From: Alphaproteobacteria bacterium
GTDB taxonomy: Bacteria > Pseudomonadota > Alphaproteobacteria > SHVV01
Reading direction: 5' to 3'
DNA length: 64,000 nucleotides
NCBI GenBank assembly: GCA_965261735.1
Contig: OZ253470.1
Location: 4,288,001 to 4,352,000 of the forward strand
Position numbers and translations under genes: made by a program. This document shows, piece by piece, positions 57,388 to 64,000 of the stretch. Numbering within the stretch: position 1 is the stretch's first letter; each line of letters opens with the position of its first letter. Below the pieces are notes generated by a model. The model worked only from the letters and a program-made list of their open reading frames with translations, was not told the origin of the DNA and made no database searches.

Positions 57388-58389
57388 CTATTTACGGGTT
57401 GCCTTCCCGAACGCCTCGGCGCCGTCGAGAAGCGACACCATCATAATGCGGCGCAGCCCGCAAGCCGCGCCGTCCAGCCGGCAGAGGACGAGGAAATACA
57501 TCTCGCCATCGTCGGGCAGCGATCCGATCAACAGCCGCTCGTCCTCGCCGGCGGAAAGAACCATGTCGAGAACGAGCCGCTTCGCAAACCCGGCCGGCAG
57601 CCCGGCGATTGCCTCCGCCGTCGCCGCGTCGGTGGCCGGCGCCGCCGCCATCACCGCCTTCGCGTCGCCCGCCGAAAGGGTCTCTGTGATATTGGCCAGC
57701 GTCGGGTGCAGCCAGGGCTCGGCTCCGGAATTCCAGCGCGCGCGTTGACGGGCATTCCACATCAGGCGCGGCCCTGTGGCCCGCGCATCGGCGGCATCGC
57801 CGGCGAAGGTCGTGGCGATCCGCGCGGCCTCTTCCGCCTTCGGGGGATGCGCGCGGTGAAAAGCCGCGAGGCGGGCCGCGGCGGTGGCGGCCAGAGCTTC
57901 GACCGGCCTCTCGTCCGCCTTCAGCCAGGACGGGCGCGACGACACTTTACCCGGCGGGCCGGTCAAGCGTTCGCCCGGAAGCGCGCGTATGACGGTCAGG
58001 CGCCAGCTGCCCTCCCGTTTCTCCCATACCGTCGAGACCGCGACGTCCAGCAGCGGGTTGTAATAGAGCGCCCTGGGGGCCGGCGAGCGGAGCCGGCCGA
58101 GCGCAACCATCGTGTTCTCGAAGAACGGCGGCCACAGCTCCGCAAGGGAGCCCTGCGCAAGGCCGCCCGGGATGTGCGAGAGCACCGGCGCGCCCCTGCC
58201 ATCGACGATCTCCGCGCGCAGCGTCAGCGCATGCGCGGCGAAACTTCGGGTTTTGGCATCGGCCCTGGCGGGCTCCGAGAGGGACATCGCGGACAGGAAT
58301 GCGGCGACAAGCCAGGCGAGCACGCAAATCGGATGAATCGTTCCACCATGCCGTGGTGCCGCTGTCTCTCCAAGCCCCAAGCCGATCAT
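57388..58389 (-). CDS. Hypothetical exported protein
   Basis: Signal-like segment ending ARA; ALYYNPLLDVAV; probable own start at ATG 58389. Confidence 0.55.
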   Translation of the reverse strand: MIGLGLGETAAPRHGGTIHPICVLAWLVAAFLSAMSLSEPARADAKTRSFAAHALTLRAEIVDGRGAPVLSHIPGGLAQGSLAELWPPFFENTMVALGRLRSPAPRALYYNPLLDVAVSTVWEKREGSWRLTVIRALPGERLTGPPGKVSSRPSWLKADERPVEALAATAAARLAAFHRAHPPKAEEAARIATTFAGDAADARATGPRLMWNARQRARWNSGAEPWLHPTLANITETLSAGDAKAVMAAAPATDAATAEAIAGLPAGFAKRLVLDMVLSAGEDERLLIGSLPDDGEMYFLVLCRLDGAACGLRRIMMVSLLDGAEAFGKATRK

Positions 58390-58436
58390 TGGCCAGTGAC
58401 TCCGACCGTAAATCGCGGCCGTAATGAGACAAGGAT

Positions 58437-59154
58437 TCATGGGCTGAGCGTCCGCGCAACACGGAAACCAATATTGCTGCTGCGGTTCCCGGCCGAGTTC
58501 CTTATGCGGGAAGCGGAGCGGAGGCGCTGCGGGCTGTTGTGCCAGGCACCGCCACGCAAAACGCGCATGCGACAATTGATCCTCGACCCACTCCCGAACA
58601 TTTCCGTGAACATCGTGCAATCCGAAAGCGTTCGGCGGAAACGAACCAATCGGAACCGTCTTACCTCGATCCAACCCCTTGCGGCCCGAGTTGTATGTGT
58701 AGTCCCCATCGTAGTTTGCCTGGTCCGTCGAGATCGTCGACCCGAAGTAGAACGCTTCCGTCGTTCCAGCCCGCGTCGCATATTCCCATTCCGCCTCCGA
58801 CAATAGCCGATAACGCTTCCCGGTCTTCCGCGACAGCCAGCGCACATAGGTCCGCGCCTCCCACCAGCTCACATCGATCACTGGAAGTCGCCCCCGACCC
58901 CAACCCTCGTCATGAGGGTGGTGTTCACGGCAGCCGCCTGCCGCCACGCAGGCGTCCCACTGAGCAAACGTGACCTCGTATTTACCGATCGCATACGGCT
59001 CTAGAATCGTCACTCGGTGCGCGGGGCCCTCATGATCTTCCCGGCCCAGTTGCGACAATCGCGAGCCCATCATGAACGAACCCGACGGAACCACAACCAT
59101 TTCCGGACACTCCTTGCAGTCACGGAATTCCTTTTTTTCAAGCAAGCGTAATTC
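58437..59154 (-). pseudogene. Formylglycine-generating enzyme (FGE-sulfatase) domain protein, frameshifted and 5'-truncated
   Basis: FRDCKECPEMV..RLLSEAEWEYA..NAFGLHDVHGNVREWVED, then RVLRGGAW..IGFRVAR in another frame. Confidence 0.85.
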
Positions 59155-59247
59155 CTTGCCTATCCGGTTTACACCCACACCCACTAGGGCTAGAATGGGC
59201 GCAAACCGGATATAGGGGAGCGCGCCATGGATGTTCTCGACCGCGCC
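59155..59247 (+). mobile_element. IS1595 left end only
   Basis: Near-identical to 31510-31601. Confidence 0.85.
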
Positions 59248-59399
59248 AGGTCGGGAACCGCCACCCCCGCTCGGCTGCCCGCGCGCGGGTCCCTCCCATG
59301 GACTACGAGGACAAGCTACCACCGAGCCCGTGGTACATCTGTGGACGCCTCCGTTGATGCAAGCCTTTCTTCGGACGGTTCGGCACATGCGGTCAGGTG

Positions 59400-59590
59400 C
59401 AGTCATCTGTCCGGCCTCATGATGCGGCTGGTTTGACGCCGCGGGCCTGTATGGAGATGCGCGGACCGGGTCCAAGATCATTTTTGCGGGCTTGAAAGCT
59501 CCGTGTACCACGACTGGTTTTCCCGATCCCGTCTCGATTGACCGTTTGCCCTTACCTGTCCTCCGACCTGCCCACATCCCCGACGGCTCT
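59400..59590 (-). ncRNA. Putative bridge RNA / seekRNA
   Basis: Non-coding tail containing segments that match both target flanks and the predicted circle junction; RNA boundaries are approximate. Confidence 0.8.
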
Positions 59591-59608
59591 CCGCCTTTCG
59601 CCGTCCTC

Positions 59609-60631
59609 TCAGGCGGCGGCGGGAGCCCGGTAGCTCTCCTTCTTCGTTGTCAGCGCCCAGATGATGCGTGCCATCCGGTTGGCCAGCGCCACCGCGACCA
59701 GCATTCTCGGCTTGCGGGCCAGCATCCTGGCCAGCCAGGGGTCGTTCGTCGCGCCACGCCGAGCCGCCCAGCTGACCACAGCCATGGCGCCCGTGATCAA
59801 CAGCCGCCGCAGATCGCGTTGGCCCATCTTCGATATCCTGCCAAGCCTTGGCTTGCCGCCGGTCGTGTGCTGTCGCGGCACGAGCCCGAGCCAGGCCGCG
59901 AAGTCGCGGCCGCGTCGGAAGCTCTCCATCGGCGGTGCGAAGGCCTGGATTGCCATTGCGGTGATCGGCCCAATGCCGGGGATCGTCATGAGCCGTGCCG
60001 CCTCTTCGTCCTGACACGCGCGGGCGCGGAGCTCCCTCCTCAATCCGTCGATCTTCGCATCGAGGTCCTCGATCCGATCGAGCAGAAGGGCGCCCAGCTC
60101 ACGGACCGATCCTGGCAGCCCTGAACCTGGACCCTGGAGGGCCGATGCCAGCCGATCGACATGAGCCGGTCCCTGCGGCGCGACAACGCCAAACTCCGCC
60201 AGGTGGCCCCGCAACGCGTTGATCGTCTGCGTGCGCTGGCGCACCAGAAGGTCGCGCGTGTGGAACAGCATTCCCCTGGCCTGCTGTTCTTTCGTCTTCA
60301 CCGCCACGAAGCGCATCGTCGGGCGCTGCGCCGCCTCGCAGATCGCCTCTGCATCCGCCATGTCGTTCTTATGCCGCTTCACGAACGGCTTGACGTAGAC
60401 CGGCGGGAGCAACCTCACCTCGTGGCCGAGCTCTCCGATCTCGCGGCCCCATTGGTGAGCGCCCGCGCAAGCCTCCATCGCGACCACGCAGCGCGGCTGA
60501 GAAGCGAGAAAGTCCAGCAATCTCTCCCGGCTCAGCTTCCTGCGGAACACGACAGAGCCGTCCGCCCCAGCACCATGAAGCTGAAAGCTGCGCTTCGCCA
60601 AATCAATCCCGACGATGGTAACCTGTTCCAC
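59609..60631 (-). CDS. IS110-family (DEDD) recombinase
   Basis: GIDLAK, MEAC, KNDMADAEAI, GLVPRQHTTGG and VALANRMARIIWA motifs. Confidence 0.95.
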   Translation of the reverse strand: MEQVTIVGIDLAKRSFQLHGAGADGSVVFRRKLSRERLLDFLASQPRCVVAMEACAGAHQWGREIGELGHEVRLLPPVYVKPFVKRHKNDMADAEAICEAAQRPTMRFVAVKTKEQQARGMLFHTRDLLVRQRTQTINALRGHLAEFGVVAPQGPAHVDRLASALQGPGSGLPGSVRELGALLLDRIEDLDAKIDGLRRELRARACQDEEAARLMTIPGIGPITAMAIQAFAPPMESFRRGRDFAAWLGLVPRQHTTGGKPRLGRISKMGQRDLRRLLITGAMAVVSWAARRGATNDPWLARMLARKPRMLVAVALANRMARIIWALTTKKESYRAPAAA

Positions 60632-60713
60632 GGATGCCTCCTCCTTCAGGGGGTCGAACTACAACACCACCTTGGCACATGCAGATGCCGTCGGGAGGAG
60701 GCGTCCACTCCAT

Positions 60714-60759
60714 CATTTTTGCGCCGCCGCGCCGGTACATATTCCCGCCGCCGCAAACA
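60714..60759 (-). mobile_element. IS21-family terminal repeat (target of the IS1111 element; continues at about 59250-59338)
   Basis: TGTTTGCGGCGGCGGGAATATGTACCGGCGCGGCGGCGCAAAAATG then TACCAC on the minus strand. Confidence 0.7.
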
Positions 60760-61114
60760 GTTCATATTTTTAGAGAAAATCTGTAACTGATTGTAAAATA
60801 ATAATAATTACTAGATCAAGAAGGGCGTACACCGAGTTTTCTCGAATCCCGTCATCAAACAGAATGCAGATTTTTTCTATAATCTGACCGTCTTTGACTT
60901 CCTTCGGCGCCGCTTGGCAATTCCGGACCGAGCCCCGACCACAGACAGATGGAAGCGGAATTCGGGCAACAGGCGCGCGTTTCCCGCAACCGCGGCAGCG
61001 AAACGAACGCCTGGGCCAGCCCGCGCTGTCGGACGACGCGGCTGACGAGTTCCACCTTCATCCTCCGATCCGCAGCTGAGGTGCCCCTACATCGGGCGCT
61101 TCGAGCGTCCGCAA

Positions 61115-61328
61115 CCCTGATCTCAGTTATACCTTCGCTTCCCGGGCACTGGCTCTCGGAGAGAGTCTCACGATGATCGGCAAGCTCCTCGGACACACCC
61201 AAGTCCAGACGACCGCGCGCTACGCTCACCTCGCCCGCGATTCTATCCAGAATGCCGCCGCGCGGATCACGGGAAGCATCGGCAGTAACTTGATGACAGA
61301 GACGAACGCCGATCAGGCCGGTCGATAG
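61115..61328 (+). pseudogene. Tyrosine integrase C-terminal remnant
   Basis: TFASRALALGESLTMIGKLLGHTQVQTTARYAHL. Confidence 0.8.
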
Positions 61329-61367
61329 TGCTTGAGACCGCCCAAGGCCGCGGAACCGCGCTTGCAC

Positions 61368-61427
61368 TTGACATACCAGGTGCCAGCACCCTAGTTTCCG
61401 GTAACGTAACCGGAAACTAGGGTGCTG
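61368..61427 (+). promoter_or_regulatory. Sigma70-like promoter overlapped by a 44-bp palindrome
   Basis: TTGACA-N18-TAGTTT; CAGCACCCTAGTTTCCGGT-aacgta-ACCGGAAACTAGGGTGCTG. Confidence 0.6.
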
Positions 61428-61429
61428 CT

Positions 61430-61714
61430 TTGGAACCTGCAAATCCTAAGACTCAAGAGGCGTCACGTGTCTCCCGACACCGCAAGAGGGTCGCAACCAG
61501 CGGCGCCCAGCGTGTCGAAGTCACGGTTCCCTCTCGGGACGCGCCCCTCGTCAAAGCGATCGCCGGCGCTCTCCGCTCGGGTGGGGAAGAAGCCGAAGTC
61601 ATTCGCCGGTCGCTGGAACCGGTACTGACCGCCCCAAGAGCACGCACAGGCGCCGAACTGGTCGCCTTCCTCCGTACCTCGCGTCTGACCGCTGCGCGGA
61701 CGCGGGCGATTTGA
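61430..61714 (+). CDS. Putative antitoxin-like DNA-binding protein; partner toxin absent
   Basis: RHRKR..GAQRVEVTVP..DAPLVKAIA resembles RHH-type antitoxins; 3' end looks altered. Confidence 0.5.
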   Translation: MEPANPKTQEASRVSRHRKRVATSGAQRVEVTVPSRDAPLVKAIAGALRSGGEEAEVIRRSLEPVLTAPRARTGAELVAFLRTSRLTAARTRAI

Positions 61715-61759
61715 ACCGCTGCATCTTTCGCTCTCGTCGTCGCACCGGCTGATGTGAAT

Positions 61760-62118
61760 TTTCTGCCCGATTGTTCTTTCGCAGGCCTTGCTCATGCTGA
61801 GCCGAGAGGGCAAGCAAACGGATCGCGGTGCCGTAGGAGCGGAGTTTATCGGTTACAATCGTCGCCGGCGCGAAGCCCTGCTTCTTCAAGAGTTTCCGCA
61901 TCAGCCGAATTGCCGCCCGAGCGTTCCTGCGGGATTGAACCAGGAAATCCAGGACTTCGCCCTCACTGTCCACGGCACGCCAGAGATAGAACTGCCTCCC
62001 TCGAATTACGACGACCATCTCGTCCAGGTGCCAGCGTTCGGTCGGTCGTGGCCGCCGACGTTGAATCCGCCGCGCATAGGCCCGACCGAATTTCAAGACC
62101 CATCTTCGAACTGTCTCG
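61760..62118 (-). pseudogene. IS6 transposase internal fragment
   Basis: ETVRRWVLKFG..WHLDE..LWRAVD..NNRAENSHQP. Confidence 0.85.
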
Positions 62119-62393
62119 CTGATCGCCGAGGCGGGGCTGATCAAGGGCGAGCGCATCGGCGTCGATGCCTCGACCATGGAGGCCAACGCGGCGCTGAGGA
62201 ACATCGTGCGGCGCGACAATGGCGAAGGCTACCGGGAGATGCTGGAGCGCCTGGCCCCGTGCTCGGGCTTGTAGGCCAGATGCGTCGTGCCGTCCTTCAT
62301 CTTGGCGATCTTGGCCTCGGGGTCGCTCTTCGAAACCCAATCCGTGTTGGAAAGCTTCTTGCCCTTGCGCTTCCGCTCCAGACGCGCCAGGTC
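62118..62393. pseudogene. Two IS1182-like transposase fragments in opposite orientation
   Basis: 62118-62257 (+) and 62258-62393 (-) both match parts of 44618-44926. Confidence 0.8.
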
Positions 62394-62517
62394 GCCGAGT
62401 CGTGCAAGAGCACTGGACTTGCCGGCGCAAAGGAGCGTCAGTGCGACCACGCCCGGCCACCCCGGGCTTGCCCCGGTAGCGGCGCCGATCTGCGCCGCAA
62501 TATCGGAGGAGAACACC

Positions 62518-62814
62518 ATGACCATCAAATCATCGAGGAAAAAGTCGGGATCGCGCGCCGCGAAGGCCACCAACCGCAAGAACTCAAAGACGACAGCTCC
62601 GAAGCAGCCGGGGATTACGAAGCTCGCACTTCTCGTCGCCCATCTCAGTGCCCCGGGCGGCGCGACCATCGCCGAACTCTGTAAGGTAACGGGCTGGCTG
62701 CCCCATTCGGTTCGAGGCGGGCTCGCCGGCGCACTGCGACGCAAGGGCCACGTCATCCGGTCCGAGAAAGAAGGGGGCCTGCGGTGCTACCGCATCGAGG
62801 AACCGGTGACATGA
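62518..62814 (+). CDS. DUF3489 family HTH-like protein
   Basis: GGAGGAG RBS; TKLALLVAHL..GATIAELCKVTGWLPHSVRGGLAG..YRI. Confidence 0.8.
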   Translation: MTIKSSRKKSGSRAAKATNRKNSKTTAPKQPGITKLALLVAHLSAPGGATIAELCKVTGWLPHSVRGGLAGALRRKGHVIRSEKEGGLRCYRIEEPVT

Positions 62815-63224
62815 TCGGCATGGCGCCGCTTGCGGACGAGATCGAGGCGCTCATGCCTCTTGGTCTCGAAGGGCTTCGAGAAGTCTGGCGCAACCGCTAC
62901 GGTGCGCCGCCGAAGCTGCGCTCGGCCGCGCTGTTGCGTCATTGCCTGGCCTGGCGGTTGCAGGCAGAGGCTCTTGGCGGTCTCGATCGTGACACACGGC
63001 GCCAGCTCAAGCGCCGCCAGCGGGTCCAGGCAGAAGGTCTTGAGCTCGGGATTGGGACCACGCTGCGGCGTGAATGGCGGGGGCGGATCGTCCAGGTCAC
63101 GGTCGAAGAAGAGGGGTTTCGCCATAAGGGCCAACTCTTCAAGAGCCTCTCCGCGACCGCGACCGCGATCGCCGGCACGCGCTGGAATGGCCCGCGTTTC
63201 TTCGGTCTCCGATCCGCTAAATGA
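62811..63224 (+). CDS. DUF2924 family protein
   Basis: Paralogue of 4229-4642; ATGA overlaps on both sides. Confidence 0.85.
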
Positions 63225-63612
63225 GCCAACCCCGTCTCCACTGCGCCCTCTATACGAGGAAGAGCAGCGAGGAAGGCCTTGAGCAGGCGTTCAACTCCCT
63301 CGATGCGCAGCGCGAAGCCTGCGCGGCGTATGTGAAGAGCCAGGCCGGCGAAGGTTGGAGAGCGGTCCCGACCCGCTACGACGATGGCGGCTTCTCCGGC
63401 GCATCCATGGAGCGCCCGGCGCTCAAGCGGCTTCTCTGCGACATCGAGGCCGGCAAGGTCGACGTCATCGTCGTCTACAAGATTGACCGCCTGACCCGGT
63501 CCTTGGCCGACTTCGCACGCATGATCGAGATCTTCGATCGCCGTCGGGTCAGCTTCGTCAGCGTCACCCAGGCCTTCAACACCACGACCAGCATGGGCCG
63601 CCTGACACTGAA
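63221..63612 (+). pseudogene. Large serine recombinase, truncated after the catalytic domain
   Basis: [29 protein letters not shown], then a break. Confidence 0.88.
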
Positions 63613-63943
63613 CTGCCACGAACCGCATGGTGGGGCGCTGTGCCGCCTCGACGATCGCGGCCGCGTCGTTACTGTCATTCTTCTGCCGTTTCAGGAATGG
63701 CTTGACATAGATCGGCGGGATCAGCTTGCACGTGTGGCCAAGAGCGAGAATCTGTCGACCCCAGTAATGCGCGCCGCCGCAGGCCTCCATCACAACCAGG
63801 CACGGCGGCGCTTCGGAGAGGAATACAAGGAACTTTTCTCGCGAAAGCTTTTTGCCGAACACCGGCTTGCCTTCCGCCGTTGCCCCATGGAGTTGGAAAC
63901 TCCTCTTTGATATATCGATGCCAATGATGTTAATCCGGTCCAC
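63613..63943 (-). pseudogene. IS110-family transposase, N-terminal third
   Basis: [30 protein letters not shown], joined directly to the recombinase. Confidence 0.88.
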
Positions 63944-64000
63944 GGACGCCTCCTTCGTTGATCGAACGCACCCCACGTGCGTTCCTTCCTGGCGCTTATG

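Follow-up and report, generated by a model that had tools for sequence, protein, structure and literature searches.

An IS1111-type insertion sequence that very probably uses a guide RNA of about 150 nt to home into the ends of IS21-family elements

We identified an insertion sequence (IS) of the IS1111 type in a 64-kb stretch of DNA (G000:C1:4288001-4352000; hereafter the window, whose positions are used below unless stated otherwise), and we consider it very likely that this element homes, in one orientation, into the ends of IS21-family elements by means of a guide RNA of about 150 nt. The evidence consists of the anatomy of the element, the identity of the insertion site in 4/4 copies, the covariation between guide and target, a conserved RNA fold and the existence of an empty site, all of which are direct observations.

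The element covers 1376 bp between two CA cores (59338-60713, minus strand), or 1378 bp when one core is included. Its borders are given by the other copies, by the joint of the empty site and by sister families, whose flanks diverge right up to the border bases. A CA dinucleotide lies at both borders (59336-59337 and 60714-60715), the left junction reading ...GTGGTA-CA/TCT-GTGGACGCCTCC and the right one GGAGGCGTCCAC-TCCAT/CA-TTTTTGCG, with the slash at the border. Deletion of the element together with one CA gives CCCGTGGTACATTTTTGCGCC, the same restored sequence that an initial annotation of the window had derived. Read in the sense of the element, the right end (RE; 59338-59352, minus strand) combines a 3-bp extension, AGA, with a 12-bp subterminal inverted repeat, and the left end (LE; 60697-60715, minus strand) combines the partner repeat (60697-60708) with the 7-bp extension TGATGGA (60709-60715, core 60714-60715 included; 5 bp without it). 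The repeat at 59341-59352, GTGGACGCCTCC, and the one at 60697-60708 are reverse complements of each other at 12/12 positions, and GGCGTCCAC of the right end is unchanged across 27 aligned relatives. The asymmetric 7/3-bp extensions and an empty-site joint that skips 1378 bp indicate that no target duplication is added. Between the ends lies a DEDD transposase, or bridge recombinase, of 340 aa with a GTG start (59609-60631, minus strand), followed after its stop by 271 non-coding nt (59338-59608), versus 82 nt before its start (60632-60713). It matches PF01548 (DEDD_Tnp_IS110, 1.7e-14), PF02371 (Transposase_20, 1.1e-24) and NF033542, 'IS110 family RNA-guided transposase', the last with 322 bits (cut-off 140) over model positions 1-342 of 343. 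Its relatives in the PDB are ISCro4 (2.8e-11) and IS621 (1.3e-8), the similarity lying mainly in the C-terminal domain. In the plasmid collection, the nearest transposases reach only 64-70% amino acid identity and are labelled 'IS110 family transposase', with no named IS among them. A large block of matches below 60% identity comes from Klebsiella, Enterobacter and Escherichia plasmids, which we take, purely as an assumption, to be IS4321/IS5075. Members of the IS1111 branch are described, in passages of PMC11187229, as having subterminal repeats of 11-13 bp, extensions of 7 (or 6) bp on the left and 3 bp on the right, a long non-coding region downstream of tnp, and an RNA in which the complement of the top strand lies 5' of the complement of the bottom strand, the two overlapping in the target. 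Transposase domains, repeats, extensions, downstream non-coding region and guide order are all found here as described in those passages. With a 340-aa open reading frame (ORF), perfect 12-bp repeats and four guide motifs in place, the recombinase, both ends and the guide appear as intact as had been proposed, and 59338-60713 is an intact IS that belongs to the IS1111 branch within the IS110 family and is probably active.

The genome contains three copies that are identical over 1376/1376 bases (the window's own included), one at 97% and one at 86% identity (c5); further relatives are 14 copies of a sister IS at 81-82% identity, plus fragments. The four copies at 97-100% identity (c1-c4) all lie between ...GAGCCCGTGGTA-CA and CA-TTTTTGCGCCGCC..., in only one orientation relative to the repeat. 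As the initial annotation had expected of other copies, they occupy the same site, 4/4 being in the inner direct repeat (R2) of the right end of an IS21-family element. The flank common to the four measures only 60-79 bp to the left and 40-46 bp to the right, with single-nucleotide polymorphisms (SNPs), and the 60-79 bp of the left side are common only to the window copy and the three other copies. Because these flanks carry SNPs while three of the IS copies are identical, the insertions are younger than the divergence of their targets, and the loci are therefore not copies of one larger segment.

The nature of the target is most apparent at c2, where the host is a complete IS21 element of ~2.55 kb. 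Its IstA (515 aa, with rve and Mu-transpos_C_2 domains) scores 263 bits against NF033546 (cut-off 160), and its IstB matches PF01695 (1e-74) and NF038214 (283 bits, cut-off 200). The istB stop is followed by a spacer of ~136 bp, the insertion and 46 bp ending in ...CCGCCGCCGTTGACA. The insertion is thus placed 46 bp inside the ...CCGCCGTTGACA terminus, in a flank that is continuous with istB and ends in the TGTCAACGG... terminus. From the outside, the IS21 end reads TGTCAACGGCGGCGGGAATATGTACCGG (R1) and then CGCGGCGGCGCAAAAA^TGTACCACGGGC (R2); the right end as a whole is laid out as ...CGTGGTACATTTTTGCGCCGCCGC / GCCGGTACATATTCCCGCCGCCG / TTGACA, with a 24-bp period that can be read from GGTACAT at 59332 and 60734, less 1378. 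According to passages of PMC10122671, the terminal inverted repeats of IS21 end in CA and consist of two (or more) direct repeats ~23 bp apart (L1/L2 and R1/R2), each built of a GC-rich part, ~10 bp of AT-rich sequence and another GC-rich part. Given the layout in those passages, the IS1111 insertion lies in the AT-rich spacer of R2, which would be a predicted IstA binding site. At the level of sequence, the order istA then istB at c2 and the build of the repeats at the right end agree with the IS21-family layout. At both ends of IS21, tnp is oriented inwards, its transcription heading from the repeat's outer side into the IS21 element. In the window, the target is present as a relic in two parts, neither with an assigned strand: an inner part (59278-59337), common to c2-c4, whose last bases are the inner half of R2 (...CCCGTGGTA) followed by the CA core at 59336-59337, and an outer part (60714-60753) with the rest of R2 (TTTTTGCGCCGCCGCG) and R1 (CCGGTACATATTCCCGCCGCCG), of which 40-46 bp are common to c2-c4. 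The terminus of this relic is CAAACA in place of TTGACA. The earlier proposal that the target is an internal repeat of an IS21-family end therefore holds at c2, inside an IstA/IstB element and in the inner 24-bp repeat, but the window itself offers only a relic. The c3 host has lost internal sequence, so that an istA fragment (97.8% over 226 aa) is now attached 68 bp ahead of the insertion, and of the c4 and window hosts only ~100-125 bp are left. The host IS21s of c1, c3 and c4 are cut at different points, just 60-79 bp from the IS1111 insertion.

The non-coding tail holds four short segments on the minus strand that match the flanks and the element's own ends. On the RE side of the target, the 5' target guide (59504-59512, a 9-nt flank match; RNA CGUGGUACA) is the complement of the top strand; on the LE side, the 3' target guide (59479-59488, a 10-nt match; RNA CGCAAAAAUG) has the sequence of the top strand itself. 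Both include the TG/CA core, together they spell CGCAAAAA-TG-TACCACG, which covers the AT-rich spacer of R2 and the GC-rich stretches next to it, and between the two guides stands an inner hairpin (59489-59503, minus strand; consensus columns 119-122 pair with 129-132). The donor guides were recognised by sequence match: the 5' one (59451-59456), RNA CUCCAU, is the complement of ATGGAG, with which the left end begins, and the 3' one (59403-59410), RNA ACAGAUGA, reads as the final 5 nt of the right end followed by the TG core and the initial base of the left end. The flank matches listed in the initial annotation were recovered: the left flank CGTGGTACA at 59329-59337 and its reverse complement TGTACCACG at 59504-59512 occur once each in the window, CATTTTTGCG only at 59479-59488 and 60714-60723, and TCATCTGT only at 59403-59410. 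ATGGAG was correctly located at 59451-59456 but is one of 21 copies in the window, and it therefore carries no weight by itself. As a chance control, the 271-nt tail was shuffled 5000 times (mononucleotide), each shuffle being searched for words that it shares, on either strand, with 20 nt of each flank. Words of at least 9 nt common to the left flank appeared in 151/5000 shuffles and words of at least 10 nt common to the right flank in 67/5000; matches to both flanks appeared in 0/5000. Since the shuffles were mononucleotide and the sequence is GC-rich, each single match is only moderately rare; the weight rests on the joint match, on its position relative to the junction and on the covariation described below.

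The fold of the tail was taken from an RNAalifold consensus built from 27 diverse tails, which delimits a structured core of ~153 nt (59391-59543, minus strand), the putative seekRNA or bridge RNA. An outer helix, GGUCA/UGACC, is followed by an 8+3-bp stem that closes an internal loop holding, in this order, the 5' target guide, a 4-bp hairpin and the 3' target guide. Beyond this loop come an unpaired 5' donor segment, a 10-bp hairpin and an unpaired 3' donor segment. The four segments had been predicted to lie in loops and not in stems, and in the 27-sequence consensus all of them are unpaired. Standard pairs are formed by 98.8% of the cells in the consensus pairs, with compensatory changes at 7 pairs, versus 29-51% of cells and 0-4 compensatory pairs in controls slid along the alignment; 0/500 shuffles reached the observed values on all five measures. 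Pair 120/131 of the inner hairpin occurs as GC (15), AU (6), UA (3) and CG (1).

Guides and targets change together among relatives. A scan of genome contigs yielded 80 loci in other genomes with 66-86% amino acid identity, and both subterminal repeats were found in 47/80. After three elements of this genome were added and nine dropped (five had longer, divergent tails, and in four the right end was duplicated in tandem), the set comprised 41 elements with 34 distinct guide/flank combinations. Over these 34 combinations, the 3' target guide matches its own flank at 7.5/10 positions versus 4.0 for the flanks of others, and the 5' target guide at 5.6/10 versus 3.3, with several zeros in the latter comparison being alignment shifts of one or two columns. 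When the 5' guide match is anchored, at least 6 nt are matched in 59% of own pairs versus 2.5% of foreign pairs. In 38/41 elements, in three sequence classes, the 3' donor guide is the same as the RE end of that very element together with its core; for instance, ACAGATGA goes with a right end ...CACAGA+TG and ACACACGA with ...CACACA+CG. Together with family membership and the consensus fold, this covariation of guide and flank, which the initial annotation had named as a check, upholds its description of an RNA-guided IS1111 element with pairs of target and donor guides.

Individual variants illustrate the same principle. In RNA sense, the tail of c1-c4 reads ...AACCAG-TCGTGGTACA-hairpin-CGCAAAAATG-ATCTTGG..., where the 5' target guide comes first and the 3' target guide last; that of c5 reads ...CGGTGGGTCA-hairpin-CGCAAAATTG... 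and that of the sister IS ...CATCCGAACG-hairpin-CGCGTAACCG... Copy c5, at 86% identity, follows a different istB (PF01695, 4e-66) at a distance of 104 bp, and its guides, GGGTCA and CAAAATTG, and its flanks, GGGGTCA and CAAAATTG, have changed alike. A related genome of the same family (G002) contains 14 c5-like copies. Here, 10/10 examined copies are in IS21 repeats CGGCGTCCAAAAT-TG-ACCCCC, eight of them in L2, ~36 bp upstream of istA; the other two are in R1, which is the outermost of the repeats that follow istB. These occupied IS21 copies are at different genomic sites, with 10 distinct outside flanks among 11 rows (L036 = L068), and at least 55 exact empty 21-mers occur in pairs ~2.48 kb apart. 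The composites of IS21 and IS1111 in this genome may have moved as units or been hit singly, as differing outside flanks fit either course. A third variant, with guide CAATATTG (CGCAATATTG), is found at GCAATAT-TG-ACCCCC, another type of IS21 repeat (L040, L067, L078). The 3' target guides read AAAATTG or AATATTG where their own targets have the same. IstA or IstB adjoins 11/80 loci, including 7/7 of those with a TG core and IS21-repeat flanks. In a quick tree of 60 distinct rows, to which 81 proteins had been collapsed, the six distinct transposases that target IS21 all lie on the same side of a branch whose Shimodaira-Hasegawa-like approximate likelihood ratio (SH-aLRT) support, 92, is under the star threshold. 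In the sister IS, the core is CG, and the flanks, where they match, read ...AACCG / CG-TTCG...

Some further observations concern these relatives. At c5, a further repeat, which carries a DDE_Tnp_1_4 transposase (6.6e-55; L024:9957-10890, genome 648956-649890), breaks the IS21 end a second time, 8 bp past the IS1111 insertion, so that the locus consists of three nested IS layers. A very abundant IS21-family element of ~2.5 kb, with ends TGTTCGGCGTGGAATATTGACCCCC... and ...GGGGGTCAATTTTGGACGCCGATTGACA, occurs in G002 (e.g. L055:1490-1560, L057:1480-1560). The sister IS (e.g. 656362-657733, L006, with guides CATCCGAACG / CGCGTAACCG) occupies many unrelated ...AACCG / CG(TTCG)... sites, which are not IS21, and its target rule looks much looser than that of the IS21-targeting variant. 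In another genome (G004; L074:2380-3900, L037, L043), a CG-core IS1111 relative sits inside the guide-RNA region of an IS21-targeting IS1111 variant, at a conserved site GGGCAAA-CG-GTCAATCGAG.

Empty sites were found in Logan contigs of public runs, 20/24 listed runs holding part of the stretch. Two runs from two different studies, X16 (an RNA library) and X4, have contigs in which 59335 is followed directly by 60714; the joint skips 1378 bp, and three letters fit either side. Contigs of X15 and X1 have an empty site with one extra C, from related IS21 copies. On the left, metagenome contigs part from the window at 59277/59278; on the right, beyond 60753, they go on with TTGACA and then with differing sequences. 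In the genome itself, no intact unoccupied copy of the exact target remains. A related complete IS21 end with one mismatch (genome 2249773-2249789, after an istB-like reading frame) is empty, as are four left-end repeats with three mismatches and two ends of another IS21 subtype. A scan with the 17-mer target at up to three mismatches returned 7 places, versus 8 for the reversed control, i.e. no enrichment by count, and only the identity of the places is informative. A loose pattern of the IS21 terminus (two mismatches) gave hundreds of chance matches in the GC-rich genome, and a stricter terminus pattern was used in its place.

A number of points weigh against RNA-guided homing into IS21 ends. 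The window's own target is an IS21 relic of ~60 + 40 bp, with an altered terminus and without istAB, and the end with one mismatch that stands unoccupied in the genome fits the proposed specificity yet could equally be empty by chance. For the sister IS, the RE-side flank matches the 5' guide in some of the 14 copies only, and guide pairing on the RE side is therefore permissive. The 5' donor guide is nearly invariant in the family, which is compatible with its role, but covariation cannot show it. The single-sequence minimum free energy fold of the tail has z = -2.1 and pairs part of the 5' guide; this fold is uninformative and was therefore replaced by the consensus. A search of 58800-61300 against Rfam 15, with E up to 1, gave zero family matches. 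On the element's strand, no sigma-70-like promoter was seen in the integrated state; a conserved TTG ~24 nt from the right end could be a candidate -35 of a promoter formed at the circle junction, with the joined hexamers agreeing at only ~7/12 positions. The circle junction itself was not seen in the contigs of four public runs. Metatranscriptome contigs do cover the tail but may be DNA-derived and give no direct evidence of RNA ends. In two RNA libraries, contig depth is higher over the tail than over tnp, which is not evidence of expression, as DNA carry-over is possible.

How else might the shared site be explained? The four copies might not be independent, a larger segment of the IS with ~120 bp of flank having been copied by recombination or by another mobile element, in which case the common flank would be uninformative on target choice. 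The shortness of the common flank (60-79 + 40-46 bp) would suit such a scenario, and the truncation of three of the four host IS21s near the insertion could hint at co-mobilised units. Nonetheless, several SNPs separate the flanks, in contrast to three IS copies without a single difference over 1376/1376 bases, c2 resides in a complete 2.55-kb IS21, empty sites exist, and relatives with other guides are found in correspondingly different IS21 repeats at many genomic sites; taken together, we regard copying of a segment as very unlikely. Alternatively, the flank could be an independent short repeat, similar to a miniature inverted-repeat transposable element (MITE) or a repetitive extragenic palindromic (REP) sequence, that merely resembles IS21 termini. 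Indeed, no istAB adjoins the site in the window, c3 or c4, and the common sequence measures only ~100-125 bp. We give hardly any credence to this option, considering that the c2 flank is continuous with istB and an IS21 terminus, that the c3 flank is joined to an istA fragment, that a related complete end follows an istB-like reading frame at 2249.7 kb, and that GC-rich/AT-rich/GC-rich repeats spaced by 24 bp fit the IS21 layout given in passages of PMC10122671.

A further alternative concerns the tail rather than the site. Its matches to the flanks might be leftovers of imprecise excision or of target capture, with the protein alone reading the site and the tail having no guide function. Single matches of 9-10 nt are not vanishingly rare (151/5000 and 67/5000 shuffles), and the guide RNA is known here from sequence only. 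Leftovers, however, would hardly account for matches that sit at fixed homologous positions in a conserved fold, of which one is a complement and the other an identity, that both abut the core and that covary with the flanks over 34 combinations; the same arrangement has moreover been demonstrated experimentally for IS1111 members, as passages of PMC11187229 report. We consider this explanation highly improbable, and RNA-guided homing into IS21 ends remains the reading we prefer.

By analogy with the published biochemistry of the family, transcription of the tail, a circular intermediate and strand exchange by a DEDD/Ser recombinase would be involved. The 3' non-coding region would give rise to a guide RNA of ~150 nt, in which one internal loop would hold two target guides that meet on the TG core, one pairing with the top strand (RE side) and the other with the bottom strand (LE side). 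The element would be excised as a circle with the junction ...CCACAGA-TG-ATGGAG... (...GTCCACAGA-TG-ATGGAGTGG...). In the complex of recombinase and RNA, the donor segments would pair with this junction and the target guides with both strands of CGCAAAAA-TG-TACCACG, and strands would be exchanged at the TG core with no duplication. Food for speculation is what this means for the host. Given that IstA requires two complete repeats for integration, as stated in passages of PMC10122671, an IS21 end whose R2, L2 or R1 is split by the insertion should stay inactive until the element excises; by this reasoning, the split R2 seen here would presumably block transposition of the host IS21. A small IS1111 clade might even be specialised as a hyperparasite of IS21, with guides that track the predicted IstA-binding repeats and are rewritten as those repeats (R2, L2, R1, L1) diverge from one IS21 subfamily to the next. 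Such an element would lock its host reversibly, because excision restores the site, and may ride with IS21 between genomes. We put this forward as a tentative idea that is rather less likely to be right than wrong.

The surroundings of the element are rich in other mobile DNA. A repeat of ~95 bp at 59152-59247 recurs with 99-100% identity at no fewer than 29 other places in the genome and has very high contig depth in X1; it may be a MITE or an abundant IS end. On the other side, 60760-64000 is a graveyard of mobile elements that includes an AT-rich stretch. It contains an IS6/IS240-type DDE transposase (61599-62219, minus strand), a DUF3489 protein (62287-62814), the N-terminal domain of a resolvase-type serine recombinase (63221-63910) and the N-terminal part of a second IS110-family transposase (~63600-63976, minus strand). 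A long ORF that overlaps the tail (57388-59577, minus strand) was rejected as a high-GC read-through artefact, only its residues 156-339 matching a real domain (FGE-sulfatase, 7e-44).

With these data, the predicted transposase-binding direct repeats of IS21 ends are added to the natural targets of RNA-guided IS1111/IS110 recombinases. This and related genomes moreover provide a compact natural series of reprogrammed guides, i.e. three IS21-targeting variants and one non-targeting sister family, from which one can read the guide positions that follow the target and those at which a mismatch is tolerated, and which helps to understand the specificity rules of bridge recombinases. If the split repeat disables IstA, the system would be an example of guide-RNA-mediated interference of transposon against transposon; if the hyperparasite idea were true, it would be a natural case of one transposon policing or exploiting another through a programmable RNA. 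In full-text searches of the literature, we found no report of an IS1111/IS110 element that targets IS21 ends, and 'IS21' has 0 occurrences in the text of PMC11187229, although the target logos for >300 IS in the source data of that article may include one.

The finding is solid but no surprise of kind, as the mechanism is established and parasitism of inverted repeats has a precedent. IS4321 and IS5075, reportedly described by Partridge and Hall in 2003, are said to be IS1111 elements that target the inverted repeats of the Tn21 family. Like the element in the window, they are of the IS1111 type and insert in one orientation at a fixed position within the terminal inverted repeat of another element; they differ in their host, which is the 38-bp inverted repeat of Tn21-family (Tn3-type) transposons, whereas here it is a direct repeat of IS21 (R2, L2, R1 or L1), and, if the plasmid matches below 60% identity are indeed theirs, in a distant transposase. 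ISEc11, ISKpn4/ISPst6 and ISPa11, for which passages of PMC11187229 report experimental proof of the seekRNA, are alike in the non-coding region after tnp, the subterminal repeats, the 7/3-bp extensions, the two target matches and the 5' position of the top-strand complement. Their targets, in the same passages, are a linear site, integron attC sites and REP sequences, while the present element is known from its sequence; natural reprogramming between close relatives is also reported there, for ISEc11 and ISXne4. IS621 and ISCro4 (PDB 8wt6, 9t56; PMC11208158) share the DEDD/RuvC-like and Tnp domains and the pairs of target and donor guides flanking a dinucleotide core. They belong, however, to the IS110 branch, in which, according to passages of PMC11187229, the non-coding RNA lies upstream of the gene, the guide order is reversed and subterminal inverted repeats are lacking. 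Therefore, both the seekRNA/bridge RNA mechanism and the family are already known, and the IS21 repeats are, as far as full-text searches show, a new class of target.

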